Of a stretch of DNA of 64,000 bases, positions 35,894 to 54,292 are shown piece by piece; the stretch's first letter is position 1; every line of letters starts with the position of its first letter. Below the pieces are notes generated by a model, which had not been told where the DNA came from, did no database searches, and was given only the letters and a program-made list of their open reading frames with translations. The DNA is from Candidatus Poribacteria bacterium. GTDB taxonomy: Bacteria; Poribacteria; WGA-4E; UBA9662. The stretch lies in the NCBI GenBank assembly GCA_036339735.1, contig JAYZAL010000066.1, positions 1 through 64,000 on the forward strand. Reading direction: 5' to 3'. The translations under genes and the position numbers were made by a program.

Positions 35894-38800
35894 ATGCGCA
35901 ATCTCGTTACTAACAGTCAACCGTATGTCAATTTTCTTGCTCATTTTGGATCGATTGATAGAAATCAGTTCTGGCTAAAAGGGTTACACGGGTCTTCCTT
36001 AAGTTTCTTCATTCAGGCCTTGGTCTCCGATCAGCCTAATAGTCCTCTTTTGGTAGTATTGCCGTCTCAAAAGGAAGCTGAAGAACTTATTTTCGACTTG
36101 GCATCTGTTTTAGTCGACAAACCGCTTTTATTTCCACAGTGGCCAAATTTCGTTTTTGATTGGATTTCACCTCCTAAGAAAGTTGTCACCGATCGCTTGC
36201 TGTGTCTCCAACAGTTACTGAAGTACTCAAGTGATTCTCCGCTAGTAGTAGTGACTTCCATTCATGCACTAACGCAGCAGATCACTCCCAAATCCTTACT
36301 AGCTCAATCATTTCGAAGGATCGTAAGAGGAGATGAAATCAAACCTCAACAAATAATCAGTAACCTTCTTGATTGGGGATATCGCCCGTCGGACATGGTC
36401 GAAATCAAGGGGACTTTTTCTTTCAGAGGTAATATTTTAGATCTATATCCACTAATAAGTCATTATCCCATCAGATTAGATTTCTTTGGAGATGAAATCG
36501 ATTCAATTCGTACCTTCGATATCAGCAACCAAAGATCAGTTGAAATGTTGGAATACGCCCAAATTAGCCCAGCTAGTGAAGTCATCTTCACTCCCGAAAT
36601 CGTCGATAATTGGCGTGATTATGCACAAAAGACCGAAGCTCTCCATTTTTCACCTCCATATTTGAATACTATAAAAGAAATAACTGAACGAATTGAAGGT
36701 TGGCAAAATTATGGTCAATCTTCAGAAGTACTGGATGGAATTGAGGCTATTCATTCAAAATTGTATACAAATACCAACTACTTGCACAGTTATTTACCTG
36801 CCGAATCTTCTGTTCTTTTAGTTGAACAAAATTGGTTAGCTCATGAAGCAAAGCAAACAATTGATAGGTTAAAAGAAGTCTTCCAGAAAAAACAGGAACA
36901 AGATAATTTTATGGTTGATCCGAATGAGGTGTTCAACACTTATCAAAAAACCCTGATTGAGCTAAAAGATTTTAATTTGATTCGTACAGCAACAACACCT
37001 CCAACCGATGGGTTAGCTGGTGAATTAGAAATTCTAAATTATAATTTTACACCTCTTGACCTTCACAAAGGGAACTATCAGGAAAATATCGACCGGTTAA
37101 GGAATTGGACCGAACAAGGTTTTCAAATTGACATTTATTGTGAAAATGAGCCCTCTATCAAACGAATGAAACGGATTTTGGACGATCGAGATTTGCCTTG
37201 GGCCGGGATTCAACTAGAAGTTGGCAGTCTGGGACGTGGATTTGTTAGTTTGGATCAAAAGTGGATCGTAATCTCTGACCATGAGCTTTTCGATCAACCA
37301 CGTAACCCCGTTCAGCGGCAACCGAAAAAATCTAAATCTCATGCTGGAGCTCCAATTCTTAGCATGATTGATTTACACGTTGGTGATTATGTTGTTCATG
37401 TGTCTCATGGCATAGGTCACTACCAAGGCATCCAAAGAATAGAAGTAGATGGTAAATATCAAGATTTTCTACATCTAAAATATAAAGATGGAGACACACT
37501 ATATGTTCCGACTTATCAGATTGATTTAGTCCAAAAATATATTGGTGGACGAGACGAAGACTATAAACCTCGAATCGATAGGCTTGGCGGAAAAGGTTGG
37601 CGACGTACGAAAGCTAAAGCTAAGGCTTCCATCGAGAAGATGGCCGAAGAATTATTGCAGTTGTATGCTGAGAGGGAAAGCTCATCGGGTTTTTCTTTTC
37701 CTGGTGATTCTCCTTGGCAACAAGAGTTTGAGGCTCTATTCCCTTACCAAGAGACCGAAGATCAACAATCAGCTATTGACGATGTAAAAGTTGATATGGA
37801 ACGTTCACAACCAATGGATCGCCTTATTTGTGGTGATGTTGGTTATGGGAAAACCGAAGTTGCTATGCGAGCTGCATTCAAATCTGCTGCTGCCGGTAAA
37901 CAAGTGGCAGTATTAGTTCCAACTACTGTTCTTTGTTTACAACACTTCACAACTTTCCAGAAAAGATTCCAGGATTTTCCGATCAACATCGAAATGTTGA
38001 GTCGATTGCGTACAGATAAACAAAGCAAAACAATAAAATCTAACTTAGAAAAAGGATCTATCGATATTATTGTCGGCACTCATAGTCTATTGGCTAAATC
38101 AATTAATTTTCATGATTTAGGTTTGTTAATTGTGGATGAAGAACATCGGTTTGGTGTAAAACACAAAGAGAAAATCAAACAATTAAAATCTACAGTTGAT
38201 GTTTTGACTCTGACTGCAACTCCTATTCCTCGGACACTAAATATGTCGATGGTGGGAATGCGTGATCTTAGCCTGATTAACACACCCCCTGAAAGTCGTT
38301 TGCCAATTGAAACTTATGTGATGGAGTATAACTCAGATATTATTAGAGACAGCATTCTTAAAGAAATTAGTAGAGGTGGACAGGTCTTTTTTGTACATAA
38401 TCGAGTTCAAAGTATTTTGAGTATCGCTGCAACAGTTAAAAAGTTAGTACCGCAGGCTAGGTGTGCTGTCGGTCACGGCCAGATGCCTGAAAGGCAGTTA
38501 GAACAGGTGATTTTGGATTTTATGGATCACCAATATGATGTGTTAATTTGTACAACGATTATAGAGTCTGGTATTGATATTCCTAATGTCAACACGATTC
38601 TTATTAATCGAGCTGATGCACTGGGGTTAGCTCAATTGTACCAGCTAAGGGGCCGTGTTGGTCGCGATAGATTTCAAGCATACGGTTACCTATTTTATTC
38701 TGTAGATCGGGCTATTACTGAAGGTGCTCAAAAGCGCCTTAGGGTAATCGAAGAGTTTACAGATCTAGGGTCCGGTTTCAAAATTGCTTTACGAGATTTG

Positions 38801-39373
38801 GAAATTCGTGGCGCTGGTGATATTCTCGGACAAGAACAGCATGGACATATTGCATCTGTTGGTTATGATCTATATTGCCGGATGCTAGATGATGCGGTAA
38901 AAAAACTAAAAGGTGAAAAAGTCTCTGAAGATCTGGAGACGAAAATTAACCTCCCCATAGAAGCTTATCTGCCGGATAATTATGTCCCCGATAGTCGTCA
39001 AAAGGTGTCGCTTTACAAGAAAATTGCTAGCGCAAAAAACGAAGCTGATTTCAGCGAATTAAAAACGGAAATGAAAGACCGGTTCGGTTCCGTACCTGAA
39101 CCTGTTGACATGTTATTGCAAATGTCATTTCTCAAATGGAAATGTCAGCAAATGGGCATTGACAAAATAACTTCAACGAGAGAAAATATAAGGATTTTAT
39201 TTAATCCTGACAGGATTGAATTTGATCCTTCGAATATTATTACGCTAATTAAGAAAGATCAACGACTAGGATTAGAGCCACCAGCACAATTGACGGTTAA
39301 CACAGAAGGTTTGACAGGAAAAAACTTGCTGGTTACCGTTCAATCTTTGTTGGACAAAATTAGGGGAATTTAG
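35894..39373 (+). CDS. mfd: Transcription-repair coupling factor
   Basis: GDYVVHVSHGIG (RID), MDRLICGDVGYGKTEVAMRAAF, IVDEEHRFGV, TATPIPRTL, QLYQLRGRVGR, DLEIRGAG; C-terminal TRCF domain. Confidence 0.98.
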   Translation: MRNLVTNSQPYVNFLAHFGSIDRNQFWLKGLHGSSLSFFIQALVSDQPNSPLLVVLPSQKEAEELIFDLASVLVDKPLLFPQWPNFVFDWISPPKKVVTDRLLCLQQLLKYSSDSPLVVVTSIHALTQQITPKSLLAQSFRRIVRGDEIKPQQIISNLLDWGYRPSDMVEIKGTFSFRGNILDLYPLISHYPIRLDFFGDEIDSIRTFDISNQRSVEMLEYAQISPASEVIFTPEIVDNWRDYAQKTEALHFSPPYLNTIKEITERIEGWQNYGQSSEVLDGIEAIHSKLYTNTNYLHSYLPAESSVLLVEQNWLAHEAKQTIDRLKEVFQKKQEQDNFMVDPNEVFNTYQKTLIELKDFNLIRTATTPPTDGLAGELEILNYNFTPLDLHKGNYQENIDRLRNWTEQGFQIDIYCENEPSIKRMKRILDDRDLPWAGIQLEVGSLGRGFVSLDQKWIVISDHELFDQPRNPVQRQPKKSKSHAGAPILSMIDLHVGDYVVHVSHGIGHYQGIQRIEVDGKYQDFLHLKYKDGDTLYVPTYQIDLVQKYIGGRDEDYKPRIDRLGGKGWRRTKAKAKASIEKMAEELLQLYAERESSSGFSFPGDSPWQQEFEALFPYQETEDQQSAIDDVKVDMERSQPMDRLICGDVGYGKTEVAMRAAFKSAAAGKQVAVLVPTTVLCLQHFTTFQKRFQDFPINIEMLSRLRTDKQSKTIKSNLEKGSIDIIVGTHSLLAKSINFHDLGLLIVDEEHRFGVKHKEKIKQLKSTVDVLTLTATPIPRTLNMSMVGMRDLSLINTPPESRLPIETYVMEYNSDIIRDSILKEISRGGQVFFVHNRVQSILSIAATVKKLVPQARCAVGHGQMPERQLEQVILDFMDHQYDVLICTTIIESGIDIPNVNTILINRADALGLAQLYQLRGRVGRDRFQAYGYLFYSVDRAITEGAQKRLRVIEEFTDLGSGFKIALRDLEIRGAGDILGQEQHGHIASVGYDLYCRMLDDAVKKLKGEKVSEDLETKINLPIEAYLPDNYVPDSRQKVSLYKKIASAKNEADFSELKTEMKDRFGSVPEPVDMLLQMSFLKWKCQQMGIDKITSTRENIRILFNPDRIEFDPSNIITLIKKDQRLGLEPPAQLTVNTEGLTGKNLLVTVQSLLDKIRGI

Positions 39374-39449
39374 GTGAAATAGTAAACCTACTGTGGTTGG
39401 AGCCTGAACTATCTTATTCTGTTCAATCTAGAATTAAAGGAGAAATTGT

Positions 39450-40784
39450 TTGAAATATAAAACTAAAATTGGTTTTAGCAATGGTAGCGAGTCTGTTTGT
39501 ACTGGCAACCAATCCACTATTAATTCTTATTCACTTTTTTTACTTTTTGCTGTCTTTTTGATTCAACCATTGGCTGAATCAAAAATCATACCGATTCAAT
39601 CTTTTTATCAAACTCAGACCGTTTCCATCCAGTCAGGAGATACTCTTTGGAAATTAGCCCAAAAATACTACGGACATGGCCAAAATTGGACACACTTTCA
39701 AAGAGATAATCGTTTCACTGATCCACACATGGTTTATCCTGGTGATCAACTGAATATTCGTCTTCATGCTCCAGCTGGAGTTGGAATAATGAATAGTGCT
39801 AGGGCCGCCGTATCAGTAGTTGCGTCTACAGCTGGATTTGTAGATCCGGTTGTTTTGGAGTACGAGTGGGAAAATAAAAAATACCAAATTACTAACTCCG
39901 AATTCGTGACTGCCTTCCAAGATTTGCCCAGTTATAAACAAGAGAACTATGTAAGTGATGAAGGCGGAATTACTACTTATTTGGAAGAGTATGTTGGCGA
40001 AAAACTAAAGCTTTTAGCAGCGAGATCAAACGGCTTTGATAAAGATGATGATATTATTCGAAAAGCCGAAGATTACCGAAACCAATTGCTGGTCGAGCGA
40101 TTAACTGAAGTCGAAGTCGATGAGAAAATTGCCTATTCAGAAAAAGAATTGGTTGAATACTATGAGGAGAATAAGACTGAGTACATCGAAGAAGAAACTG
40201 TTCGGGCAACATGTGTTTCTCTAACTGATGAAAAGAAAGCTGAGAAAGCATATGCTATGTATCAAGAGGGGATCGATTTGGCTGAAATAGCTGAAACCTT
40301 CAAGAATGACTTGCAAGGTCCTGGCGATAGTCAGAATGATCCTGGCAACACTGGGGAATTTCGTCGAGATGCTAGTGAGAACTGGATGCCTTTCGTTGAA
40401 GCTATGTTCGGAATGGAAGTAGGAGAAGAGTCTACTGAACAAATGGAACTTGATGTTGGTGATAATGTATTCTACCTACTGTTCCGGAAGGAATCACAAA
40501 CGCCCGCACGACAACAAACGTTCGAAGAGGTTCGCGACAGCATCGTTACGATAATCGAGCAGCAGAAAAAACGAGAACGAATTTTGGCTTGGGTAGAAGA
40601 CGTAACAGCCAAAGGAAAGCTAAAGTTTTACCCAGATAAAGTCCCCGTACCCGAGGTACCATCCGATGATGAAGAGTCATCTGAAGAGTCATCTGAAGAG
40701 TCATCTGAAGAATCATCTGAAGAATCATCTGAAGAGTCATCTGAAGAATCATCTGAAGAATCAAATGCCGAGGAGGAAAAGTAG
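39450..40784 (+). CDS. LysM domain plus PrsA/SurA-like parvulin (PpiC-type) foldase with acidic EESS-repeat tail
   Basis: IQSGDTLWKLAQKYYG..DPHMVYPGDQLNI (LysM); helical SurA-N-like region; VRATC, PGNTGEF, QTFEEVRDSI. Start codon uncertain. Confidence 0.8.
   Translation: MKYKTKIGFSNGSESVCTGNQSTINSYSLFLLFAVFLIQPLAESKIIPIQSFYQTQTVSIQSGDTLWKLAQKYYGHGQNWTHFQRDNRFTDPHMVYPGDQLNIRLHAPAGVGIMNSARAAVSVVASTAGFVDPVVLEYEWENKKYQITNSEFVTAFQDLPSYKQENYVSDEGGITTYLEEYVGEKLKLLAARSNGFDKDDDIIRKAEDYRNQLLVERLTEVEVDEKIAYSEKELVEYYEENKTEYIEEETVRATCVSLTDEKKAEKAYAMYQEGIDLAEIAETFKNDLQGPGDSQNDPGNTGEFRRDASENWMPFVEAMFGMEVGEESTEQMELDVGDNVFYLLFRKESQTPARQQTFEEVRDSIVTIIEQQKKRERILAWVEDVTAKGKLKFYPDKVPVPEVPSDDEESSEESSEESSEESSEESSEESSEESSEESNAEEEK
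40671..40763 (+). repeat. In-frame 12-bp tandem repeat GAAGA(G/A)TCATCT, seven units plus a partial eighth, encoding (EESS)n
   Basis: Units read directly at 40671, 40683, 40695, 40707, 40719, 40731 and 40743; partial at 40755. Confidence 0.97.
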
Positions 40785-40786
40785 TA

Positions 40787-41800
40787 ATGCAGTACTATCT
40801 AAATACGATATGCAAATTTGGTCAAAGTTGTTTCTTGATAATCCTTGCAGTAATGTTAGGTTGTAGTGGTAAAGCCAATGCAATCGATGGTACTGTGATT
40901 GCTGAATTTGAGTGGAAAGGAAAGCACCAAATCACATTGGAAGAAATGATGGAGGAAATCAGTGAGTTACCTGAATACAAGCAAAATCAGTATGCGAAAA
41001 GTAAGGAAGGCCTCGTTGAATATATGACACTGATGGCGGAAAGCCGACTGATTTTGCTTATGGCTAAGGAACAAGATTTAGACCAGAAGGGAGAAATTAA
41101 AAGAAAGGTTCAAGAGTATCTTCATGAATTGATGGTGGAACAAATCACGGATATTGAAGTGGAACAGAAGGTCAAACCAACTGACGACGACTTTCAAACC
41201 TACTACGAAGAAAATAAAAAAGACTATGTAAGCCCAGATCAGGTTAGGGTTACCTGTATCGCTGTTTCCGATCAAGAAACAGCTACCAAGGCTTTGACAG
41301 AAATCCACCAAGAAGGACGAGATATCACTGAAATTGCGAGGGAATTATCCGATAAAGGCCAACTGGAAGGTCCAGGATCAGACCCAAGTAATCCTGGTGA
41401 TACCGATTTCTTCTCACGTGAGAGTTTTTCGCAGGTAGTCAAACCATTTGTAGATAAAGCGTTTGAAATGGAAATTGGCGATATAAACGAAGAGCTAGTT
41501 GAAGTAGAAGTCCAAGGCTCCAAGTACTACATGATATTTCGTAAAGAAGAGTTTAAAAAAGAGCGACAGAAGCCCTATGAGGAAGTCAAAGACGATGTCG
41601 CTTACGAAGCTGAAGAGAAGTTACGGTCAGACTTAACAAAAGCTTGGCTAGGTAAGTTAAAAGACCAGGCTTCCGTTAAGATATTTGGAGACCGAATTGA
41701 GTTGCCAAAGACTGAGGAGACAGAAAAAATGGAATCTGCGGGTGAAGGTACAAGTGATGAAGTAGAGAACGTGCCTTCCAATGAACCAGCGAAGGAGTAG
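40787..41800 (+). CDS. PrsA-like parvulin foldase, probable lipoprotein; paralogue of the upstream gene
   Basis: Lipobox-like MLGC; YYEENK, VRVTCI, PGDTDFF, KAFEMEIG, KPYEEVKDDV. Confidence 0.85.
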   Translation: MQYYLNTICKFGQSCFLIILAVMLGCSGKANAIDGTVIAEFEWKGKHQITLEEMMEEISELPEYKQNQYAKSKEGLVEYMTLMAESRLILLMAKEQDLDQKGEIKRKVQEYLHELMVEQITDIEVEQKVKPTDDDFQTYYEENKKDYVSPDQVRVTCIAVSDQETATKALTEIHQEGRDITEIARELSDKGQLEGPGSDPSNPGDTDFFSRESFSQVVKPFVDKAFEMEIGDINEELVEVEVQGSKYYMIFRKEEFKKERQKPYEEVKDDVAYEAEEKLRSDLTKAWLGKLKDQASVKIFGDRIELPKTEETEKMESAGEGTSDEVENVPSNEPAKE

Positions 41801-41809
41801 CTAAAAACA

Positions 41810-41840
41810 TGTGGTTAGCCAGTGATTCTGGCTAGCCACA
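41810..41840. terminator. Intergenic hairpin (terminator or mRNA stabiliser)
   Basis: TGTGGTTAGCCAG-TGATT-CTGGCTAGCCACA, 13-bp stem with one G-U; no strong T-tract on the + strand. Confidence 0.5.
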
Positions 41841-41861
41841 CTAATAAAACCAAGATTAAAA

Positions 41862-43256
41862 ATGAAATACTACCAACACATTACTCTTTTTGGTTTGGCC
41901 TTCTGCCAATGTATCGTTTTCGGCATACTAGATTTTGCGTCAGTGGAAGCCAAAACTTTTGACCGTATCATTGCTCAGGTCAACAATGAAATTATTACCG
42001 AATGGGAATTGACCACCTTAGTCAAGCAACGGTCAATTGAGTTACAGCGTGGATTCGGTGTCAATGACGAAGAGGCAATTCGTCAGGCTGAACAAGATAG
42101 ATCAAAATTGTTGGATCAGTATATCCGTCAATTATTGTTAGTTGAAACAGCTTTAACCTTAAAAGATCAAATTCAGGTTACTGATCAAGAAGTAGACCAG
42201 CGGATTAACACCTTTAAAGAAAGTGCAGGTATCGAAACAGAAAGTGATTTTCTGGAACAACTCAAAAGAGAAGGATTGACTTTTACAGCTTTCCGCGAGC
42301 AAACCAAACGAAATCTGATGGCAGAACGGCTGATCATGAAGCGAGTTTTACCTAAGCTACAGGTCAGAGATCAAGAAATAGAAGACTTTTTTTCCGAAAA
42401 CAGAGAGCAGTTTCCTAACAAAACAGATGAGGTTTATTTGAAGCACATTTTTATTCCTTATGAGCCCACAACGAACGACAAGAAGTTGACACGCCAGAAG
42501 GTTGAAAATGCAATTACAGACCTGACGCTCGGAGATAAATTCGAAGATATTGCTGCTCAGATGTCCATTAAAACAAGTTTAGATCGTCAGCAAACAACTG
42601 GTAAGATGGTAGAAATATCCTTAGATGAAATGAAAAGTTTGTCTACACTTTTTCAAAAATCATTAGCTGATTTAAGCTCTGGGCAAATTAGTCAACCGGT
42701 GGAGTCCGTCGATGGCTTCTACGTTTTTAGAGTTGAAAAAAAGAATGATCAAAAAATTGTTTTTCAATACTTTCTGACCCCCTTCCAGATCAGCCAAACT
42801 GCAAAAGAGAAGGCACTTCAAAAGTCAGAACAGCTTGTTGAAAAACTCGATCAAGGTAGTGACTTTGACCAAGTGCTGCAAACACACCGCCAAACAACTT
42901 CGGGGTATGACTCAGAACTCGAAAAAAATAGGTTTGGTGGAGACTTGGGATTTCAACCATTAGCCAATCTATCGACCGAAATTCGTAAAGTAGTCGAATC
43001 ATTGGGGGTTGGTGTTTATAGTGGCCCAGTTGAAACTAGTTCTGGGTTTCATATTTTTATTGTTATTGACAAACAGAAAAGCCAGTTAAATGAAAAAGAA
43101 AAAGAGCAGGTAAATCTTTACTTGAGAGATCAAAAGTTTCAAAAAGAATGGAAGAACTATACGAATCTTCTAATTGAATATTCATTTGTCAAATACTTTG
43201 ACCCAAAATTGATCATTGAACCGACTGAAAACGAGGGTGCCACGGCTATCGAATGA
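41862..43256 (+). CDS. surA: SurA-like periplasmic chaperone (SurA-N plus two parvulin domains)
   Basis: Signal peptide; DRIIAQVNNEIITEWEL, LKHIFI, GQISQPVES..GFYVF, GGDLGF, GPVETSSGFHIF. Confidence 0.85.
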   Translation: MKYYQHITLFGLAFCQCIVFGILDFASVEAKTFDRIIAQVNNEIITEWELTTLVKQRSIELQRGFGVNDEEAIRQAEQDRSKLLDQYIRQLLLVETALTLKDQIQVTDQEVDQRINTFKESAGIETESDFLEQLKREGLTFTAFREQTKRNLMAERLIMKRVLPKLQVRDQEIEDFFSENREQFPNKTDEVYLKHIFIPYEPTTNDKKLTRQKVENAITDLTLGDKFEDIAAQMSIKTSLDRQQTTGKMVEISLDEMKSLSTLFQKSLADLSSGQISQPVESVDGFYVFRVEKKNDQKIVFQYFLTPFQISQTAKEKALQKSEQLVEKLDQGSDFDQVLQTHRQTTSGYDSELEKNRFGGDLGFQPLANLSTEIRKVVESLGVGVYSGPVETSSGFHIFIVIDKQKSQLNEKEKEQVNLYLRDQKFQKEWKNYTNLLIEYSFVKYFDPKLIIEPTENEGATAIE

Positions 43257-46200
43257 CCCGCCCCAGTAATTCGGCGAGTCAGCAACAACTCTCTGCCATC
43301 CACGCTTTGTCTGTAAGCTTGCTCTCCGGTCTGTTCCTGTTGCTTCCATTCGGTCTTGACCACGTTTTGGCGCAAGATACATCAACTGGGCCCGTACTTA
43401 CCTCCCAAATAAATACCGAATCAAAAGATAATAACACTAGTGAGACACCACCGGTGCTCTCTCCTCAGCTTAATTCTCGGTCGGATCTTCTAAGACCAGA
43501 AGAAACAGAACCAGAAGAGGGTAAAATTATTGGTAAGGGAGATGAACTATTTCTAGTAGGAAATTTAGTTCACATTCATGGTAATGCACTAGTTAAGTCA
43601 GGAGATATGACTCTTTATGCTGACCACGTTTGGGCTGACTTCGATCAAAATCTACTACGAGCCTCTGGTAATGTTAGATTAATTTCTGGTCAAGAACGTA
43701 CTTACTCGAATGAACTTCTTTTCAATTTAGACAATAGAAAAGGTATTATCCGTCAAGGTTCGACTTATAGTGAACCCTGGTATTATCGGGGAAATGAAAT
43801 TTTCAAGACTGAGGACGACGAATCCTATATTCGCAAAGGATCATTGACTACCTGTTCCTTGAAACACCCACATTATTATTTCAGTAGTTCAGAGATTATA
43901 GTTAAGGTTGACAAAGAGTTGATTGCCAAAAATGTAGTCCTCAAAATTGGTGGAATTCCGCTTTTTTATATTCCAGCTTATCGTCGCGATTTACGTACCG
44001 ACAAATTAGCCAAGGTAATTGTAAGGTTAGGAACAGATAGCTATCAGGGACCATTTTTAAGCATTGAGTTGCCACTATCCCGCAAAAGGAGGCTGGATGC
44101 ACGTCTAATGTTCGACCATACCTCCAGAAGGGGACGTGGGGGAGGAGCCGATAGTACTTATCAAATTAACGATACACGTTATGATGAAATTTTTATCCCC
44201 ATCTTTCATGATGCCACTCCTAGCGAGAAGAAAAAATTAGAAGACCTCGCAACTGAGATTAGGGAAAAACTTGATGGAGATCATGATTCATACAAATTGA
44301 AGGAACTCTTCCTAGAATATCGGTTGGAGCCAGAGGATCTTGCTCGAGCCAAGGACAAAGTAGAAAAAATTTATAATAAACTAACAACTGATCTAATCAC
44401 GACCGAAGCTGATCAGCCATCCGATCCATTACCGTTAGGATCAGAAGCCGCTTTTGCACAAATCGCACAGGAGAACTCAGATCACCAAGAAACTCGCTAT
44501 GAGGGTGGAGATATGGGCTATATTATACGTGGTGAAGTCGACGAAGAAGGAAAACGACGACTAAGTCCTATGTTGGAGGATGCTGTTTTTTCATTGTCAG
44601 CTGGACAAATTAGTCCAATCCTAAAAACCAATTTTGCTTATCATATTTTTAGGGTCGATCATGTATTAGAAGTTTACGGAAAGAAAGAGATTAAGCTCCG
44701 CCGTATCGATATCAAAATTAGTCCGACGAGCGAAACGAAAGATCAAATACGCGAACTCGCTGATAAGATCCAAGAACAAGCAGTAGATGGTAAGGACTTA
44801 GCTGATTTGGCATTAAAAAACAAAGGTGCTATCTGGCGAAATGTCAATAATGGAGACTGGTTACCCCTAAACGAAATGGACGACAGATGGCAGTATTCGG
44901 TTAGACGGTTGGAAGAAGTGGGGGATGTAACTACAACGGTTATGACTGACAGAGGCGTACACATTTTTCAACTTGTTCAAAAAATGCCGACACCTACCTT
45001 CGCTGAATTAGCCAGCGAATTTGAGTCTCAGTACGGAGATTGGTTGCGTGAAGAGTATGAACGCCGCAAACCGGAAGAAAAAAAACAATCTCAGAGTTTT
45101 CTGATGGGTACAACTGCAGAGCGAGCCCCCCTCAAAAGAAAGCCTTCTAATATAGATGAGAAGAAGGAATTACCAAATCAAGCACCTTCGGAGACATCGA
45201 CAATTGATGAAGATGGAGTTGTAGAGCAAAAGGAACAATTAGAAGTTTTCCGTCAACATGACTTTCAGGGTAGTTGGCAAAATGAAAAGGCTGTTGCACG
45301 ACAAGCTCGTCAGTTAAATCGGGGCGAAACGAGTAACATTATCGATAGTAAAATAGGTTTCCACCTCATAGATATCAAAAAAAAGCGAACTTATCGGGGT
45401 GATTTTTACTTGTATGGCCAAGATCAATATTCCTATTCGCGAAAAGATGCTATGAAAATTGGGCGAGAATACGTTGCGCGGTGGGGGCATTATCATAGTA
45501 TCTACACACCTTGGGATAAACCAGAAGAGGGAAGAAAACCCCTTAACTTCATGGGAAGAGCTGAATGGCAAGCACGCCATTACGATGAAAATTATGGTAC
45601 ATCTGAATCGGCTATTCATTCTTTTGGTATGTTGACATGGGGAAATGCTTTTTCTGCTTGGGATACAGATGATCGCGATGCTGACGGCAATCTGAAATTT
45701 TCTACCAAAACTATTGGTGAGTTTTTAGGTCGTTTACAATTCAGTCATTCGTATGAATTAATCGAAAGTGATGTTGCATCTACCCTACAAAAACTACCTG
45801 AGTTATCTCTTCACTTTTCCCGAATGAGAATGAGTAACTTGCCTGTTTTTGAAACTATCAATGACACACTGGTCAAAATTTCGGAAAAAACAAAAACTAA
45901 TATACCTATATTGTCTCTCATATCTCTTCCTACTCTAGAAGATGCTTCATTTGATTTAGATATGAATTTAGGTAATTTTTTTAGAAAACGTTATGAAAAA
46001 GAGCAAGATGTTTATTTGAAAACAGGAGTGATGGGATTCGACATTCAAAAACAATCGACACTCAAGTTATCTTCTACACGGGAAGTTCGCCTAGATCTTG
46101 GCTTCGATTCTGATGCTGTATGGCATGATCGAGATCGGGATGGCCATAAAAACATTCTGAGGGGTATCTATAGCCTCAACGCCGATGCTCGCAACATATT

Positions 46201-47056
46201 ATTTCGTATCTATGACATTAGCTGGATTCCTGGAGCACGACGCCTAAGACACCAGATCAATTCTGGCGTGTATTTTAATTATCAGCCTGCCGTAGATCGG
46301 GATGAAAACAGCCGCTTATATCCCTTTGGACCAAGTACTTATTTTTACGAGCGCAAAGATATTAGCTACACATTAGAAACAAGCATTGAAATCAAAACGC
46401 GTAAGCATCGATCAGCTCTAAGATTGATCGATTTTCGCACCCAATTGCGTGGGGATTTTACAGAATATGCAGCTGAAAACAATAGGACTTATGATTATAT
46501 AGAGAGCGATATCACTCTCACACCACTACCCAATCGCACGATGAGTATTATCATGCGTACTACTCATGATCCTAACCCATCAGAGGTAGATGGGAAAAGA
46601 TTTAAACAAGTAGGTTTTCGCTCTAATTTTAGTTATCGTCGCGAAAAATGGAATCTAACTTTCGGTAACTCGTTCAGTAAACGAACAAGTTATGCCTCTC
46701 GTCGTATTAACACAAGTTTTCAATATCGTCCCAATTCAATGTTCGAAGTCGACTTTAATGCTGACTATGACTGGGTGGAAAAACAGTTTTATTCTCAAAG
46801 TTTAACCATTCGAAGGAACCTACATGATTGGGACTTGCGACTTTCCTGGCATCGGATTGGCATCAAAAGGCCACCTGATTTTAACAGTGTACGACAAGAT
46901 TTCACCTTTCAAATTAACCTGATTGCTGACTCAGCTGCTTCGGTTGGTCTCGGTTACGATGCAGTAACTGAGACTTGGGGCTTCCGTAGCCTGCCAGTTG
47001 GTGTACCTTATAACGCTTTTGGTGTTGGTAATGCTATGAGTCGCTCATATTTCTAA
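43253..47056 (+). CDS. lptD: LPS-assembly protein LptD-like outer-membrane protein with inserted parvulin domains
   Basis: OstA jellyroll (GNALVK..TLYAD..ASGNVRL), SLTTCSLKHPHY, KNVVLKIGGIPLFYIP, DHTSRRG, C-terminal barrel with RRNLHDW..FTFQINL. Internal GGDMGY, GQISPILKTNFAYHIF, GVHIF and GFHLI parvulin motifs. ATGA overlap with surA. Confidence 0.8.
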   Translation: MTRPSNSASQQQLSAIHALSVSLLSGLFLLLPFGLDHVLAQDTSTGPVLTSQINTESKDNNTSETPPVLSPQLNSRSDLLRPEETEPEEGKIIGKGDELFLVGNLVHIHGNALVKSGDMTLYADHVWADFDQNLLRASGNVRLISGQERTYSNELLFNLDNRKGIIRQGSTYSEPWYYRGNEIFKTEDDESYIRKGSLTTCSLKHPHYYFSSSEIIVKVDKELIAKNVVLKIGGIPLFYIPAYRRDLRTDKLAKVIVRLGTDSYQGPFLSIELPLSRKRRLDARLMFDHTSRRGRGGGADSTYQINDTRYDEIFIPIFHDATPSEKKKLEDLATEIREKLDGDHDSYKLKELFLEYRLEPEDLARAKDKVEKIYNKLTTDLITTEADQPSDPLPLGSEAAFAQIAQENSDHQETRYEGGDMGYIIRGEVDEEGKRRLSPMLEDAVFSLSAGQISPILKTNFAYHIFRVDHVLEVYGKKEIKLRRIDIKISPTSETKDQIRELADKIQEQAVDGKDLADLALKNKGAIWRNVNNGDWLPLNEMDDRWQYSVRRLEEVGDVTTTVMTDRGVHIFQLVQKMPTPTFAELASEFESQYGDWLREEYERRKPEEKKQSQSFLMGTTAERAPLKRKPSNIDEKKELPNQAPSETSTIDEDGVVEQKEQLEVFRQHDFQGSWQNEKAVARQARQLNRGETSNIIDSKIGFHLIDIKKKRTYRGDFYLYGQDQYSYSRKDAMKIGREYVARWGHYHSIYTPWDKPEEGRKPLNFMGRAEWQARHYDENYGTSESAIHSFGMLTWGNAFSAWDTDDRDADGNLKFSTKTIGEFLGRLQFSHSYELIESDVASTLQKLPELSLHFSRMRMSNLPVFETINDTLVKISEKTKTNIPILSLISLPTLEDASFDLDMNLGNFFRKRYEKEQDVYLKTGVMGFDIQKQSTLKLSSTREVRLDLGFDSDAVWHDRDRDGHKNILRGIYSLNADARNILFRIYDISWIPGARRLRHQINSGVYFNYQPAVDRDENSRLYPFGPSTYFYERKDISYTLETSIEIKTRKHRSALRLIDFRTQLRGDFTEYAAENNRTYDYIESDITLTPLPNRTMSIIMRTTHDPNPSEVDGKRFKQVGFRSNFSYRREKWNLTFGNSFSKRTSYASRRINTSFQYRPNSMFEVDFNADYDWVEKQFYSQSLTIRRNLHDWDLRLSWHRIGIKRPPDFNSVRQDFTFQINLIADSAASVGLGYDAVTETWGFRSLPVGVPYNAFGVGNAMSRSYF

Positions 47057-47281
47057 ACGAACTTTTCCGATTAGATAAACAAAAGTTTGAGTTGCTGAAC
47101 ATCAACCAAACGATCGGTTCTACGTCTAAAACAGGTCGAAAATCAAATATAGGCATAAAGATAGATTCAGCAAAAGCTAAGGCGTCCGAATTCGCCACTG
47201 TTGATCATCGAAATTACACTTCCATATCAAGTTATACAAGATCAGAAGTAGCATTCATTAAAATTTACGGGGGACAGTATT

Positions 47282-50200
47282 TTGGGTAAAAGGGGCTTGA
47301 GTTGCAAGGATAGCCAAGCGAGTATCAGTGTGCAGGCACCAATCACGGGAATTAGTCTAGGTGTCATTTGGTGGTATGTTCTTTGTTCATGTATCAGCGT
47401 TTATGCTGCCGATTTTGCCATTCCACCGCAAGTTCTTGACGATACGACAGAAATAGACGCAGTTTTTAGTCCCAATGGTGATAACATCCAAGATAAGGTC
47501 GTCATTGTCTTTGAAATGGATGGTACAACCGGTGAGTACGAGATAATCATCGATGTCCATGGGCCAGGCGGTGTTGGTAAACCTGACGGTCAGTTCAATG
47601 TAGATGATGACTGGTCAGTTTTAGGTAAGTTTGGCCCTGGTGTAACAATCAATGATGCCCCTAAGCGTTTTCGTATTGAATGGGATGGAAGAGATAGTGT
47701 TGCTGGAACAGCTAAAACTGTAACTGATGGAAACTATCAACTGCGCCTGCAAGTTGACTTTTTTCAGAATGAAATATTGGATCCAATACAGGATTCACAC
47801 TCCCAAATCTTTCCTATAATTGTTGATACAGAATCACCACAAACGTCGGCTAAGTTGGAAAGAACAGGCTTCTCACCCAATGGTGATGGTAACCGTGACC
47901 AACTACCTATTAACTATGTTTTAGGAGAACAATTATCCGGCCTGGAACTATTAGTTCCAAGCCATTCATCAATTCAATTATCGGACCTAGCAGCAGGCAA
48001 TCAAATTTTCAACTGGAATGGACAAGACGGGCTTGGAGCTGTTCTGCCAGACGAGTCTTACAATCTTCAATTAAGAAGTTTGGATTTAGCCGGTAACGAA
48101 AGTATCGTTTCTCTAGGGCAGATTTGGCTTGATACAAAAAAACCAACTATCAGCCAAATAATTCCATCTCCTGATGCCAAAGTGAATACTACAGTCAATG
48201 AGTTGATAGCTACCTTTGAAAGTGGAACAGGTAGTCAGATTGACTTTGATAACTCGATTATAAGTTTGACTCATCTTGATGAAACTATTCAAAATGGGAC
48301 TGTTAGTTATGAGAATATGACCTTGAGGCTAACATTAGAGAATTCTCTTAATTTGGCTTCAGAGAATGGGCTTTACACAGTGAATGTGCAAGCTGTTGAC
48401 CTCGCGGGAAATAGGGAAGTCTCAACTTTCAATTTGGTTTTTGATACGATTCAACCATCAGTACTACAAATTCGTCTCGATGAAGACAACTTGCGTGACC
48501 GAGTTCATGTTAATAGTAGTATCGGTTATATTGAGGCAGACCTAAGTGATAATCTTTCTGGATTAGATTTGGCAAATTCACTTCTGCAATTGTCAAAATC
48601 AGGTACAGTTGTAGATGGAGTTCAGTTACAGATCGATACCGATACAATTCGTTTTCAACTTAGCCGAGCACTTAAATCAGACGGGAGTGATGATGGAGCT
48701 TACGAAATCCTGCTTACGGTATTTGACACAGCGGGTAACAGTCAGGTACAAACACATCCGCTAGTTTACGATACTACAGCCCCTACTTTGATAGGAACAA
48801 ACCCTCCAGATCTTTCACAAGAAAAAGTCCGTATAGATCAAGCTGTAGCAACAATTGAGCTCACCTTTTCTGACCAAAACGATAATGTTGTTACTTCTGG
48901 GCTAAGCTTTGATGAGACGACAGTTTTTGTCACTAAAAGTGATGGAACGTTAGTCTCTACAATTAAGCAGGTCACTTCTCCTTCTAATTTAGAGCTACGC
49001 TTTTCTAGTTCTCTGACTGCTGGTGATTATACACTTTCATTCGTAGCAAGCGATAAAGCAGGCAATCAAGGAAAAGAAACTAACTATCCTTTCTATATCG
49101 ACCTGAGGGTACCAGAAATACAATTCACGCCAAATAACGTACCATTGGCTACATTAGAAGCAGTCTCAGCTCAATTGATAAACTATACTGGGATTGGTTT
49201 AGATCTGGTTAGGTCTAGCCTACTAGTTCAAGACGTTAGTGGTAATACGATTCCATCCCAAAAGACCGAGATAGTTGATCAATCTCTAGTTTGGCATATC
49301 AAAAACCAGTTACCAAAAAATGGAAGTCAAGATGGAAATTACATAGCCACGGCCAACTTTGCTGATTTTGAAGGTAGAACCTATACAGCGAGTTCGACCT
49401 TGACTGTTGATACGCTACCACCTACTATTGACAAGACCATCCCTGTTGATGGTTCGAAAGTCTCTGTCCTAAAAGAAGTTGACGTATTCCTAAACGACAA
49501 TTTAAGTGGAATTGACTTTAGTCAAACCGAAGTCTTGTTAAGTTCAGACGGTGGTACAATTTCTACCACAAAAAGTGATAATGGAGACAATCACATAAGA
49601 CTCACCTTTACTGACCGCCACGCGGACGGGTCGGCGGATGGTTTGTATACGGTTGGTATCACGGCAGTTGATTTAGCCGGAAATATTAGTGGGACTCAAA
49701 ACGTGTCCTTCTACCTAGTCACACAAAAGCCGGAAATTATTTCGGTTACACCGTCTGCTAACTCTCGAATCAATCATTTATCTACAATTTCTGCATCATT
49801 GTTGGATCTTAGTGGAAAGGGTATTGATTTTGATAAAACAACCATTACTTTGTCCAATTCTAGCGGTGAAGTTCTGGGTGGAACCTCATTAACACATACT
49901 GACTCACAGATCACATTAACAGGAATAGAATTACCTACAGATGGATCGGCAGATGGTATATATACTATGTTAATCACATTAGTAGATAAACTTGGTTCCA
50001 CAGCAGAAAAGCTGCAAAAAATTCACTATGATACGCAACCACCTGTCATGAGGACAAGCAATCAATCCTTCGAGAGACTATCAACAGACCAGGTGTCAGT
50101 TAGCTTCGAGGTAGTTGATTCCGGCAGTGGAATTGATATTACTAACTCTAGCCTACAGCTATCCAATACCGATGGAACAGTAGTCCCAGGCCAGTTTAGT

Positions 50201-53200
50201 TATGATGGTACAGCAAACCTCAGCTATAAGTCAGCTAAACTCAACGCTAGTGGCATTTATATGCTCCAAGTTGTACTTACAGATCAGGCAGGCAACAGCA
50301 GCATACCATATACTTTTTACTACGCATACGGGGTAGAGCTAGCAGAAGTTGTTGAGGTCACACCCCGTTTGACTAATAATTTGGAAGCGGTCGTTGTCAC
50401 ATTCAAGAGCCAGCAAAGTCTCGATTTTGAGCAGACGATTCTTGAACTGATAGCTCCGAATCAGCAAGTTGTTTCTGGTGTTATGACCAACGATGGTCAA
50501 CAACTGATAACCTTCACTCCAAGCATACCATTAGCTGTTGACGGAAGCCAAGACGGCGCTTACGCATTAACAATCCAGCCATCAGTTATGGCCATAGGCC
50601 GCTCAGATAAAAAGTGGTCTGGTGAAATTACTTTTGACACACAACCACCCGAAGTAAAGTCAATATCTTATATTACTCAACCTGAACAGTTAGCGGTTGA
50701 TTTGCAAGGCACGGTTGTGGGTTTACCCACACAATTTCAGTTGGTGTTAGCTGATACTATTAGTGGAATTAATGGGCAACAAACAACAGCTCAGTTGATT
50801 TCGCCTACAGGACAAGTTAGTACCACAAAATCCTTGAAAGCCGATATAGAAACCAATGAATACTCTATTAATCTAAGCCTAAACAGTCAGCCTAAACCTG
50901 ATCCTTCCGTAAATGGCGACTATGTTCTTGAAATTATAGCCGTTGACCTAGCTGGTAACTCAACGACCTACAGTCGTAGTTTTACAGTCATGTGGGCTGC
51001 AGCTACGGTTTCATCGACTCAACCAGCATCGTTTAGTAAACTGAATGAGTTGCAACGAGTCGACGTGATGCTTGAAAATATGGCCGAAACTGAAATTGAA
51101 AAAATGGCCACTGTTCGATTAGTAAGTCCAGACAACTCCGAGGTCGCAGGGCGACAAGAAGTTGTAGGTACTATGGTAAGTTGGATATTGGATCAACCAC
51201 CACCACAAGATGGAACTGCCGATGGAGTCTATACAATTCAATCCACGGTTCTTAAGAATGATCAGGTTCTGCTATCCGAAAACACCACATTCCTATATGA
51301 TACCAAAAGCCCTCAAGTTGATAGCGTAGTACTGCAGACAAACGAATTGACTGAACTGATACCTAGTCAAGTTATAATGGTTACAGAACCATTCTCTGCC
51401 ATAAAAATTAAGATAGTTGATCAGCTAGCAGGGACTGATTTGACGACCTCAACAGTTAGCCTGAGAACTAGTGAAGGTTTAGGGATCGAACAAGGCCTAA
51501 ATAATGGTACTGGCGAAGTTCTTGAGGTCAAGAATAATGGTATTGATACAATTACGGTTGAATTTGCAGAATTGAAATTAACTGGTATCTACACATTAGT
51601 GATTACACCAAAAGACTTGGCTGGTAATACTGGCCATCCATCGCTTTATCAAATTAACCTCAATCTCTCAAAGCCAAAACTCACTTCAATCAAAATTAGC
51701 GACCGACTGGGACTTGTCACAGCAGAATTAGCTAATGCGACCGCAGAGTATTCTACCATCGAAGTTGTGGGTCCTAATGGGCAAGTTATTGGTAAAACCA
51801 CAGAGGACAATCTTAAGAAACAAATTACTTGGACTCCGACAAATCTTGCTCAGGACGGTACTGATGATGGGGTTTATACGATTACGGTTACACCAGTTAA
51901 CAAGCAAGGTATATCCGGCCAAGTATTAGTAAAGCGGTTCACTTATGACACCCAAGAGCCTGAGATTAATAATATTACTGCTGTCGATCTAACACAACCG
52001 GTCTCTTATCTATCGAACCCAACGTCACAAATTACAGCAACGGTCTCTGATCTGGGACCAGCAGGGCTCGACACTGAACAACAAAAGATAACACTAATTG
52101 ACAGTAGTGGGCAAACTGTCAGCGCATTTTTAACTCATGATGGTAGAGAAAATCTATACTTCACTTTCAATCCATCGTTCGCCAAAGATGGGACTAACGA
52201 TGGAGAATATCAACTAGCTATTAACTTAATTGATAAGGCTGGTAACAAAAAAGACTTCACACATTCGGTATTTTATGATAGTTCTCCACCAACGCTGACC
52301 GATATTATTCCAGGCGATGGGGCTCTTCTTAAGGGAGAAATTAATCAGGTTACAGTTAATTTGGCTGACAAAAACGGAAGTGGTATCGATTTCAGTCTAA
52401 CGACCATTTCGGTAACAGATACTGAGGGCAATTCGGTGAGTGGTCAAATGAGCCACGATGGAAAGTCTAAAATAATCTTTAAAATTGATGATCTAGCACC
52501 AAGTGGATCCTATTTGGTTCGAGTTGAAGTCGCCGATCGAGCTGGTAATCAAGCCATATTCGAAAGCGGATTCACAAATTTGTCTAATTTACTTGTAGCT
52601 TCCTCCACTACACCTGTAACACGTCCAATTGAAAAGGCATTCAACCGAAAAAAACTAGATTCAGTTACAGTTCAACTGCCAAAAGATGTTGGGATCCACT
52701 TGTCTACGTTACATTTGGTCGACAGTAGTGGTCAAATGGTCATGGGGTACCAAGACCGTAATGGTTCTTCAGATTTACAATATCAGCTCCAAAAGCCATT
52801 GAAGGACGATGGATCAGATGATGGGACATATACTATTGTTTTTACTCCTATTAGCGCTAATGGGCAAAGAGGGCAACCACAACTTATGAGTTTCGTCCAC
52901 GATACAGTAGAGCCAGAAATCGATGATGGCCAAATTCGGCTGAATGTAGCTCAAGCAGGAGTTAATAACTCACTAGTATCAATTCAGCTACCAGTGTATG
53001 ACCCATCTCCATCTTCGGGTATAGACTGGTTAGAACGTCCATTGCCAATCGTAGTAACGTTAGAATCTTTCGCAAAGGAAAATATTGCAGGTCGGATTTT
53101 AGTTGAATCTGATAAAGAGGAGGTGACTTTTGTCCTAAACAAACCTCTGGCGAGTGACGGCAGCCAAGATGGGAAATATAAGCTGAAAGTCGATGTTACA

Positions 53201-54292
53201 GACCAAGCAGGTAATGACTTGAATTGGATTTATGATTTTGATTACGATACTCGTCCCCCAGAGATCCAAACCTCAGATTTACAGATTAATGGGCAGCCAC
53301 TAATTGTTGATGCTAACCATATCGACTACCCATCAGTTGCAGGTCGTGGTGGTTCAGTTATCATAACAGCCAAGATAAAGGATAGTGACGGTTTAGGGGT
53401 AGACTTATCAACTTCCAGCATAAATGTTATCTCACCAAGTGGTGAGGCCATAACCGGAGGCCTCACACAGAATGGAATTGATTTTCTGGTTTTTAGCTCA
53501 TCGCAATTATTGCCCAATCAAGGATACTATAGGGTGGTGATTACAAGCGTCGGGTTAGATCCTCAGAACTTGGGTTTCCAGCCGACAAAGACAATTAGTA
53601 CTGAATTCCTCTATGAGACATTACCACCGGTTGCAAGCCTCACTGATAGTGGTAAAGATAAGATTGAAGAAGGAGATGCCTTAACACTAAAAGGTGTAGC
53701 TTCAGATCCTGATAGTCAAGAAATACCAGCTTCTGGTGTTAGTCGTGTTGAGATTGTTGGTACAGGACCCGACGGAAAAGATATAGAACCGGCTGTAGCG
53801 GTGGACATGAGTAAAGGTGGTAGTAACCAATGGAGTAGCTGGAAAATTGATTACTTACCACCTAAATCTGGTAGATATGTATTGAGTGTTCGAGTTTATG
53901 ATAAAGCGGGTAATGCCGAAACTTATGAAAAGAAAGATGTTACTTTCACAGTTTCACTTGGATTCAAAGGTGAGACATTTTGTTGGCCTAATCCCGTATC
54001 GTTGTCTGCGTCATCTAGTGGTTCGGTGGCACATATATCTTTCGATCCTAATATAGCCAGTAATGATACAGCTAATCTGACCCTTAGTGTTTACGATTTA
54101 TCTGGTGACTTAGTCTATCGATATAAAGAACCTGATATAAAACCAGGTAGACAAGATACTACACTCAAATGGAATTTAAGTAATTCTTCTGGAAGTAAGG
54201 TCGCACGTGGTATTTACCTTTTTCGACTGGAAATAGTAAATGGCGTGGATGAATCATCCAATACGGTTGGTAAAATCCTAGTAGTGGAATAA
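47282..54292 (+). CDS. Giant secreted Ig-like repeat protein (2336 aa) with N-terminal FlgD-Ig-like modules and a C-terminal T9SS type-A-like sorting domain
   Basis: Repeats of about 100-115 aa with SG(I/L)D, DGSxDGxY, DxAGN and DTxPP motifs. C-terminus WPNPV..LSVYDLSGDLV..WNLSNSSGSKVARGIYLFRL..GKILVVE. Start uncertain. Confidence 0.85.
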   Translation: MGKRGLSCKDSQASISVQAPITGISLGVIWWYVLCSCISVYAADFAIPPQVLDDTTEIDAVFSPNGDNIQDKVVIVFEMDGTTGEYEIIIDVHGPGGVGKPDGQFNVDDDWSVLGKFGPGVTINDAPKRFRIEWDGRDSVAGTAKTVTDGNYQLRLQVDFFQNEILDPIQDSHSQIFPIIVDTESPQTSAKLERTGFSPNGDGNRDQLPINYVLGEQLSGLELLVPSHSSIQLSDLAAGNQIFNWNGQDGLGAVLPDESYNLQLRSLDLAGNESIVSLGQIWLDTKKPTISQIIPSPDAKVNTTVNELIATFESGTGSQIDFDNSIISLTHLDETIQNGTVSYENMTLRLTLENSLNLASENGLYTVNVQAVDLAGNREVSTFNLVFDTIQPSVLQIRLDEDNLRDRVHVNSSIGYIEADLSDNLSGLDLANSLLQLSKSGTVVDGVQLQIDTDTIRFQLSRALKSDGSDDGAYEILLTVFDTAGNSQVQTHPLVYDTTAPTLIGTNPPDLSQEKVRIDQAVATIELTFSDQNDNVVTSGLSFDETTVFVTKSDGTLVSTIKQVTSPSNLELRFSSSLTAGDYTLSFVASDKAGNQGKETNYPFYIDLRVPEIQFTPNNVPLATLEAVSAQLINYTGIGLDLVRSSLLVQDVSGNTIPSQKTEIVDQSLVWHIKNQLPKNGSQDGNYIATANFADFEGRTYTASSTLTVDTLPPTIDKTIPVDGSKVSVLKEVDVFLNDNLSGIDFSQTEVLLSSDGGTISTTKSDNGDNHIRLTFTDRHADGSADGLYTVGITAVDLAGNISGTQNVSFYLVTQKPEIISVTPSANSRINHLSTISASLLDLSGKGIDFDKTTITLSNSSGEVLGGTSLTHTDSQITLTGIELPTDGSADGIYTMLITLVDKLGSTAEKLQKIHYDTQPPVMRTSNQSFERLSTDQVSVSFEVVDSGSGIDITNSSLQLSNTDGTVVPGQFSYDGTANLSYKSAKLNASGIYMLQVVLTDQAGNSSIPYTFYYAYGVELAEVVEVTPRLTNNLEAVVVTFKSQQSLDFEQTILELIAPNQQVVSGVMTNDGQQLITFTPSIPLAVDGSQDGAYALTIQPSVMAIGRSDKKWSGEITFDTQPPEVKSISYITQPEQLAVDLQGTVVGLPTQFQLVLADTISGINGQQTTAQLISPTGQVSTTKSLKADIETNEYSINLSLNSQPKPDPSVNGDYVLEIIAVDLAGNSTTYSRSFTVMWAAATVSSTQPASFSKLNELQRVDVMLENMAETEIEKMATVRLVSPDNSEVAGRQEVVGTMVSWILDQPPPQDGTADGVYTIQSTVLKNDQVLLSENTTFLYDTKSPQVDSVVLQTNELTELIPSQVIMVTEPFSAIKIKIVDQLAGTDLTTSTVSLRTSEGLGIEQGLNNGTGEVLEVKNNGIDTITVEFAELKLTGIYTLVITPKDLAGNTGHPSLYQINLNLSKPKLTSIKISDRLGLVTAELANATAEYSTIEVVGPNGQVIGKTTEDNLKKQITWTPTNLAQDGTDDGVYTITVTPVNKQGISGQVLVKRFTYDTQEPEINNITAVDLTQPVSYLSNPTSQITATVSDLGPAGLDTEQQKITLIDSSGQTVSAFLTHDGRENLYFTFNPSFAKDGTNDGEYQLAINLIDKAGNKKDFTHSVFYDSSPPTLTDIIPGDGALLKGEINQVTVNLADKNGSGIDFSLTTISVTDTEGNSVSGQMSHDGKSKIIFKIDDLAPSGSYLVRVEVADRAGNQAIFESGFTNLSNLLVASSTTPVTRPIEKAFNRKKLDSVTVQLPKDVGIHLSTLHLVDSSGQMVMGYQDRNGSSDLQYQLQKPLKDDGSDDGTYTIVFTPISANGQRGQPQLMSFVHDTVEPEIDDGQIRLNVAQAGVNNSLVSIQLPVYDPSPSSGIDWLERPLPIVVTLESFAKENIAGRILVESDKEEVTFVLNKPLASDGSQDGKYKLKVDVTDQAGNDLNWIYDFDYDTRPPEIQTSDLQINGQPLIVDANHIDYPSVAGRGGSVIITAKIKDSDGLGVDLSTSSINVISPSGEAITGGLTQNGIDFLVFSSSQLLPNQGYYRVVITSVGLDPQNLGFQPTKTISTEFLYETLPPVASLTDSGKDKIEEGDALTLKGVASDPDSQEIPASGVSRVEIVGTGPDGKDIEPAVAVDMSKGGSNQWSSWKIDYLPPKSGRYVLSVRVYDKAGNAETYEKKDVTFTVSLGFKGETFCWPNPVSLSASSSGSVAHISFDPNIASNDTANLTLSVYDLSGDLVYRYKEPDIKPGRQDTTLKWNLSNSSGSKVARGIYLFRLEIVNGVDESSNTVGKILVVE

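Follow-up and report, generated by a model that had tools for sequence, protein, structure and literature searches.

The locus studied here raises the question of what a protein does when its sole Pfam matches are Rotamase (PPIC-type) domains confined to residues 304-711 of a chain of 1267 amino acids. The protein is encoded by a single open frame at 43253..47056 on the + strand of a 64,000-nucleotide stretch of DNA (positions 1 to 64,000 of contig JAYZAL010000066.1, assembly GCA_036339735.1, from a Candidatus Poribacteria genome), the whole of which is referred to below as the window. A sequence-only reading of the window had proposed that this frame encodes LptD with parvulins inserted in its β-barrel. 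LptD is an essential protein, an antibiotic target and a classic hard-to-fold client of SurA and of the β-barrel assembly machinery (BAM). We find that the open reading frame (ORF) is almost certainly the Poribacteria orthologue of LptD with the anatomy described below, and the best explanation of the whole is a Poribacteria LptD whose parvulin module, placed in the periplasmic turn T2 of the barrel, would act in cis, a reading to which we assign a probability of roughly 0.55.

Conventional domain searches gave little to recognise the protein by. When residues 304-711 were scanned separately, three Rotamase stretches were recovered from Pfam (E 2.9e-28), and neither flank scanned by itself matched any Pfam family at E<=10. 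Only weak matches were given by the N-terminal piece (residues 1-303), to NCBIfam models of LptD (E 2.6e-6 and 1.9e-5, well short of the cut-offs) and to the chlamydial CT351 family. In the scan with OstA/LptD and Rotamase models that the sequence-only reading had suggested, the Rotamase half was thus recovered and the LptD half was not, the Pfam LptD and LptD_2 models giving nothing and NCBIfam LptD staying below cut-off. Because of this, the family tie was drawn from profile-profile comparison, a search among representative proteins and the fold. An alignment of 80 sequences (A1) was compared by hhalign with ten canonical LptD_2 proteins, giving a probability of 100 and E 3.9e-48 over 654 columns, and the post-insert part only, compared with 62 LptD_2 sequences, gave a probability of 100 and E 1e-40; hhalign also aligned the N-domain with both LptD_2 and E. 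coli LptD. The canonical LptD_2 proteins were drawn from a hidden Markov model (HMM) search with the post-insert barrel among 1.84 billion representatives, which yielded 49 matches at E<=1e-3; out of 18 that were Pfam-scanned, 13 were LptD_2/LptD proteins without Rotamase and 5 were long Rotamase-only forms. A 9-sequence profile of residues 91-303 matched the solved Neisseria LptD (7omm_A, E 0.0011), and a profile of the post-insert barrel matched no solved chain in the PDB. An AlphaFold2 model of residues 91-1267 was obtained with a predicted local distance difference test (pLDDT) score of 76 and a predicted template modelling (pTM) score of 0.56. Foldseek ranks 1-15 against the PDB were LptD chains throughout (best 4q35_A, E 1.6e-20; template modelling score on the target 0.43-0.51), and the module was matched at lower ranks by 8hm4_B, a peptidyl-prolyl isomerase (PPIase), by PpiD 8zht_A (E 2.6e-5) and by SurA 1m5y_C. 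The identification as LptD, put forward from the letters of the DNA, is borne out by the profile comparison and by these ranks.

Some of the results weigh against this assignment. None of the cut-offs of the curated Pfam and NCBIfam LptD models was reached by the 1267-residue protein, with NCBIfam LptD scoring 25.9 bits vs a cut-off of 683 and Pfam LptD_N 12.4 bits vs a cut-off of 20.4, and the AlphaFold2 model is only moderate by both of its overall scores and weak on the pre-insert strands (pLDDT 49-73). In phylum genomes, Pfam LptD_2 matched 38 of 61, in 34 over the cut-off, with at most one gene per genome, and all the matches listed lie in frames of 1113-1399 amino acids. Scans of the source genome, a 107-contig draft that is 92% complete, with Pfam LptD and LptD_2 gave no match, so no second LptD was found at this completeness, and the 1267-residue protein is the sole LptD homologue found there. 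The same genome encodes LpxC (E 1.5e-84), two LptF/G genes and an LptA-like ORF. From the homology, the single copy found and the presence of lipid A synthesis, LptFG and an LptA-like protein, we infer that the protein still moves lipopolysaccharide (LPS). The segments of the gene, all within the window, are as follows.

43253..43522, + strand: signal-peptide-like start and low-complexity, poorly conserved stretch, residues 1-90 (from the translation; signal peptide judged by eye)
43523..43954, + strand: periplasmic β-jellyroll (LptA/OstA-like), residues 91-234 (all-β in the AlphaFold2 model; 7omm_A profile match)
43955..44167, + strand: last N-domain strand IPLFYIPAY, linker loop and strands β1C-β4C, residues 235-305 (hhalign to E. 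coli LptD; alignment to the canonical LptD_2 protein P0145)
44168..44281, + strand: A-N, the N-half of the outer parvulin A, residues 306-343 (strand extending β4C plus helix; DSSP E204-226 and H233-250 in cut numbering)
44282..44680, + strand: parvulin B, residues 344-476, the best preserved (Pfam Rotamase E 2.4e-14, 54.5 bits)
44681..44992, + strand: parvulin C, divergent, residues 477-580 (Rotamase_3 33.1 bits and Rotamase 32 bits, over cut-off)
44993..45235, + strand: helix of parvulin A (581-608; H493-514 in cut numbering) and variable charged linker (609-661)
45236..45385, + strand: A-C, the C-half of the outer parvulin A, residues 662-711 (last strand runs into β5C; DSSP E612-636)
45386..46921, + strand: barrel strands β5C-β26C, residues 712-1223 (22 DSSP strands in the AlphaFold2 model)
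46922..47056, + strand: C-terminal tail of 44 residues, 1224-1267, plus stop (ends RSYF; no predicted fold, pLDDT below 50)

The place of the module in the barrel was determined by reference to E. coli LptD and to P0145. In E. coli LptD, as given in PMC4353691, Y212 and Y215 are on the N-domain strands β11a/bN, lumenal loop 1 (V220-I230) joins the N-domain to barrel strand β1C, Y247-W249 are on β2C and the cysteines are in turn T12, between β24C and β25C; the residues of E. coli K-12 LptD agree with this numbering. The segment IPLFYIPAY was aligned by hhalign to E. coli VPIFYSPYL (208-216), which contains Y212 and Y215, and as this is β11N, of the five strands that separate the jellyroll from the insert the first belongs to the N-domain. 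The AlphaFold2 model of P0145 (pLDDT 84.8) has 26 barrel strands, counted with two DSSP-split strands merged and one 3-residue strand ignored, and holds the conserved Cys709 between strands 24 and 25. The four remaining pre-insert strands align to β1C-β4C of P0145, so that the insert begins at turn T2. After the insert, β6-7 and β9-26 map one-to-one onto the same-numbered P0145 strands, β5 maps partly and β8 falls in an unaligned stretch, which brings the barrel to a total of 4+22 = 26 strands. By this mapping and the model, the module is placed in the periplasmic turn T2, between strands 4 and 5, beside the β1/β26 gate and the jellyroll. The barrel of about 26 strands that AlphaFold was expected to show is therefore present in the model, and the periplasmic turn after strand 4, which the earlier reading had named, is recovered by strand mapping to both E. 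coli LptD and P0145.

The module spans approximately residues 306-711 (window 44168-45385), as set by the model strands that enter and leave the barrel, which is within 2 residues of the 304-711 read from the sequence. The chain leaves the barrel for the module along a strand at 204-226 in cut numbering and returns along another at 612-636, and in the model the β4C/β5C hairpin appears to pass directly into the sheet of parvulin A. Two tandem parvulins, B and C, nested in the insert are well supported by the profile matches, and their HMMs also recognise the two parvulin domains in the SurA encoded next to lptD (E 2e-8 to 1e-4). In parvulin B, S409, G419, G422 and H464 were found in 80/80 aligned sequences and the set of S409, GG(D)MG and His464 in 71-80/80, with Asp at 410 or 411, the GGDMG motif and an invariant terminal His464. 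That an outer parvulin A, split and degenerate, surrounds B and C as a third domain is reasonably supported. Its C-half scores just under the Rotamase cut-off (20.4 bits vs 21.7, profile positions 52-96) and matches positions 70-109 of the B-domain HMM with an independent E value (iE) of 0.0011, and in three more divergent homologues (P0122, P0129 and P0141) the part after C matches positions 36-110 at iE 2.8e-5 to 3.4e-9. The part after C is thus a parvulin without its first strand and helix, which A-N would fit in size and secondary structure to supply. Scanned by itself, A-N gave no Pfam match, and its assignment as the N-half of A (38 residues, one strand and one helix) is partly supported by the model. 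Of the split parvulin around two more that had been read from the sequence, B and C therefore stand over the Pfam cut-off and the C-half of A just under it, and the N-half of A stands on secondary structure.

The module is also constrained in length. A-N has 38 residues in 80/80 aligned sequences and A-C has 50-51, and the identity of the module elements is 39-52% vs 16% in the linker (609-661), which is predicted to be disordered (pLDDT 26-30 over cut positions 519-571) and varies from 24 to 166 residues in homologues. One locus (L002) was omitted from alignments A2 and A3 owing to an X in its translation.

Such an architecture was found throughout the phylum. All of the 41 nearest genomes (4 families, 10 genera) gave a stop-free match at 50-92% identity; most of these matches were full-length, a few fell in two pieces within one frame, and several of the genomes are single-contig. 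The matches of relatives mostly begin at query residue 15-80, that is, within the poorly conserved start of the protein. A wider taxonomic survey, as had been suggested together with the sequence-only reading, gave matches at E<=1e-20 in 151/151 sampled phylum genomes, and in 5/5 genomes from other orders and another class the query residues ~84-591, comprising the jellyroll, the first barrel strands and the parvulins, were contiguous in frames of 1120-1319 amino acids. In a collection of 5.8 billion proteins, 316 homologues were found, and Rotamase was present in all 120 among the matches listed (~1143-1393 amino acids). Rotamase was not found in 120 LptD_2 relatives of P0145, by precomputed Pfam domains among the matches listed. 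The insert-bearing form is phylum-wide, and no other LptD was found in these genomes. One homologue of 856 amino acids (P0150), from a Poribacteria metagenome-assembled genome and lying on a 159-kb contig, has the jellyroll, the parvulins and barrel-profile positions 1-142 only and stops there. The gene may be truncated or split, or the barrel may be a smaller one.

Apart from the module, the Poribacteria protein was found to differ from canonical LptD in its cysteines. The 1267-residue chain holds a single Cys, C201 (window 43853-43855), in the jellyroll. At the position of the T12 Cys, which is present in 59/62 canonical LptD_2 sequences, 80/80 Poribacteria sequences have D, N, V or G, the protein having H-D-W (window 46823-46831) where canonical LptD has H-C-W. 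With a single Cys and the T12 Cys replaced, the disulfide from jellyroll to barrel, which is essential in canonical LptD, cannot form. The jellyroll Cys is kept in 77/80 sequences, and Cys201 is hence left unpaired after the loss of its T12 counterpart.

Besides, two further parts of the protein are unusual. Turn T5 is enlarged to 38 residues with two helices in the AlphaFold2 model, and in the sister class (genomes G041 and G042; loci L020/L024 on G041:C5 and L019/L025 on G042:C308) as well as in P0129 and P0141 a fourth parvulin segment lies in T5 (query ~880 to ~890). The T5 segment of P0141, where HMM positions 38-111 precede 4-40, hints weakly (iE 0.0033) at a circularly permuted parvulin. 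These matches suggest that parvulins were captured in LptD at least twice, in T2 phylum-wide and in T5 in the sister class. The C-terminal tail, rich in Pro, Gly and aromatic residues, is the most conserved segment of the protein (72% mean identity) and has 44 residues in 80/80 sequences. A 187-residue ORF elsewhere (L026:1282-1845, G000:C36), with a lipobox-like LFIGC seen by eye, matched Pfam LptE at 18.7-19.2 bits, below the cut-off of 23, and is a possible candidate for a divergent LptE. A role of the module as a barrel plug replacing LptE was set aside, as such a sub-threshold LptE-like lipoprotein exists.

As for the function of the module, we propose that it may be a peptide-binding or prolyl-isomerase unit working in cis in the periplasm, where it would help to hold this very large, SurA-dependent barrel, to hand it to BAM and to close it; alternatively, it would keep the finished N-terminal region in place. 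Such an assembly or stabilising role is a tentative proposal to which we give slightly worse than even odds, and it is favoured because LptD is strongly SurA-dependent in E. coli (PMC3747590), because parvulins occur at two periplasmic turns and because the module is constrained in length and sequence. Several observations weigh against such a role. The position on the first strand of parvulin B that we take to be that of the first catalytic His, with Pin1 and Par10 as our guides to the catalytic residues, is L/F and not His, and parvulins A and C are without the typical motifs. No match to SurA_N, SurA_N_2 or SurA_N_3 was found in residues 304-711 at E<=10. In SurA itself, PMC3747590 places the chaperone activity in the core, describes the parvulins as lacking intrinsic chaperone activity, with only P2 an active isomerase, and reports them to be largely dispensable. 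The module would hence be no copy of the SurA chaperone core, judging from its domains, and the "built-in chaperone" of the sequence-only reading is unproven: the insert lacks the SurA_N-type core which the neighbouring SurA has, two of its three domains are degenerate, and the function is inferred. A complex prediction of jellyroll vs module (score 0.00, mark 0.32) spoke neither for nor against binding.

The loss of the disulfide opens another explanation, namely that the module is a structural brace which replaces the lost bond and holds the jellyroll in register with the β1/β26 gate from T2, with no catalytic or chaperone role. It would account for the replacement of the T12 Cys in every Poribacteria sequence aligned, against its retention in nearly all LptD_2 proteins, with the jellyroll Cys staying; T2 is four strands from the gate, and two of the three domains are degenerate and still fixed in length. 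In Salmonella and E. coli, the disulfides fix the N-domain beside the gate, as stated in PMC4353691. However, the signature motifs of parvulin B are kept in all 80 sequences, for which a pure strut would have no need, and the link between Cys loss and the insert comes from one evolutionary event only. We consider a brace unlikely.

A somewhat less likely explanation than the brace is that LptD is a platform in trans: beneath the outer membrane it would carry a PPIase or peptide-binding module that acts on other outer membrane proteins or docks to BAM or SurA. The module sits on a flexible, variable linker, three further parvulin proteins in the operon suggest a parvulin-rich envelope biology, and a SurA parvulin domain is described, in PMC3747590, as modulating the interplay with BAM. 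Against it, the neighbouring genes already provide a free periplasmic SurA and two PpiC-type proteins, and the capture of parvulins twice in LptD, in T2 and in T5, points to an LptD-specific link.

That the module lies instead on the cell surface, in extracellular loop L3, is very improbable. The thought arises from the raw DSSP count: five strands lie between the jellyroll and the insert and another 22 follow (to residue 1223), 27 in all, which puts the insert after an odd strand; this count, and the fact that the membrane side of the module follows from strand counting and alignment rather than from geometry, speak against a periplasmic placement. A barrel of 27 strands is impossible, however, because both barrel ends are periplasmic; by its alignment to E. 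coli 208-216, the strand that comes first among the five is N-domain β11N, the canonical model has 26 strands with the insert following β4C, and the run of 22 strands behind the insert finishes on the periplasmic side. Parvulins are not known from bacterial surfaces.

An artefact, either misassembly, one of the outcomes named as overturning the sequence-only reading, or the false fusion of a parvulin gene with LptD fragments, is rejected with next to no doubt, because the insert is conserved in a single stop-free frame in 41/41 relatives, single-contig genomes included, and in distant classes, and base composition is uniform along 43253..47056, across both insert junctions too, while 316 homologues exist with Rotamase in all 120 of the listed ones.

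An improbable further reading, on a par with the platform in trans, would be that maturation or gating of the Poribacteria LPS translocon depends on prolyl-isomerase or peptide-binding domains in periplasmic turns, which would replace the disulfide-rearrangement checkpoint on LptD maturation in Proteobacteria. The two captures, the T12 Cys loss in 80/80 sequences and the conserved 44-residue tail would together fit such a self-contained system, where the module might bind LptD's own tail or gate strands and thereby time barrel closure or jellyroll docking.

The genes upstream of lptD in the window, all on the same strand, were found to be as follows.

35894..39373, + strand: mfd, upstream of lptD
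39450..40784, + strand: LysM and Rotamase_2 protein (Pfam), ending in a long SEES-type Ser/Glu repeat
40787..41800, + strand: Rotamase_2 protein (Pfam)
41862..43256, + strand: surA-like gene, SurA_N-type core and two parvulins (Pfam SurA_N, SurA_N_2, SurA_N_3, Rotamase)

Three consecutive parvulin-family genes thus lie between mfd and lptD (window 39450-43256), and the surA stop and the lptD start overlap by 4 bases (ATGA), in line with the position directly after surA that had been noticed earlier. A SurA homologue was present directly upstream and on the same strand in 13/14 related loci, including the sister class; lptD also adjoins surA in E. coli, in the opposite order. A promoter and terminator scan of 39300-47400 gave nothing above shuffles. 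Directly downstream (window 47282-54292) lies an ORF of 2336 amino acids made of many similar modules of ~90-100 residues, Ig-like by eye.

No published description of a parvulin-bearing LptD was found in the literature on LptD with parvulin or PpiC and on the Poribacteria outer membrane and LPS, in agreement with the statement of the sequence-only reading that none was known. The few named homologues are called "hypothetical protein", "peptidylprolyl isomerase" or "parvulin-like peptidyl-prolyl isomerase" of Candidatus Poribacteria, and the name for the family in the ESM Atlas is "PpiC domain-containing protein". Because their LptD carries the names "peptidylprolyl isomerase" or "hypothetical", Poribacteria look LptD-less, and the annotation of these LptD proteins is here corrected. 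Parvulins fused into LptD and kept through the whole history of a phylum are natural evidence for a direct link between parvulins and LptD. They offer a single-polypeptide system for asking what parvulins do for a large barrel, and likewise for the question of P1 and P2 in SurA. The locus also indicates that a periplasmic barrel turn can host three folded domains.

Compared with the canonical LptD of LptDE (E. coli, Shigella, Salmonella, Klebsiella and Neisseria; PDB 4q35, 4rhb, 5iv9, 8h1r and 7omm), the Poribacteria form shares the jellyroll, the PxFYxP last N-domain strand, the 26-strand barrel, H-x-W at T12, a long C-terminal segment after β26 and the linkage to surA. It adds the ~400-residue three-parvulin T2 module, the enlarged T5 and the 44-residue, highly conserved tail, and differs in being without the T12 cysteine, and hence without the interdomain disulfide, and in a sequence too divergent for the curated models. 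SurA (PDB 1m5y) has tandem parvulins of the same Pfam family as the module, whereas the insert has no SurA N/C core, its host is a membrane barrel and its outer parvulin is itself a split host domain. The foldases PrsA and PpiD show the same nested domain-in-domain topology with a parvulin as guest. Their host domain is helical and either soluble or anchored in the inner membrane, whereas here two parvulins are guests in a third parvulin, which is itself the guest of a turn of an outer-membrane barrel.

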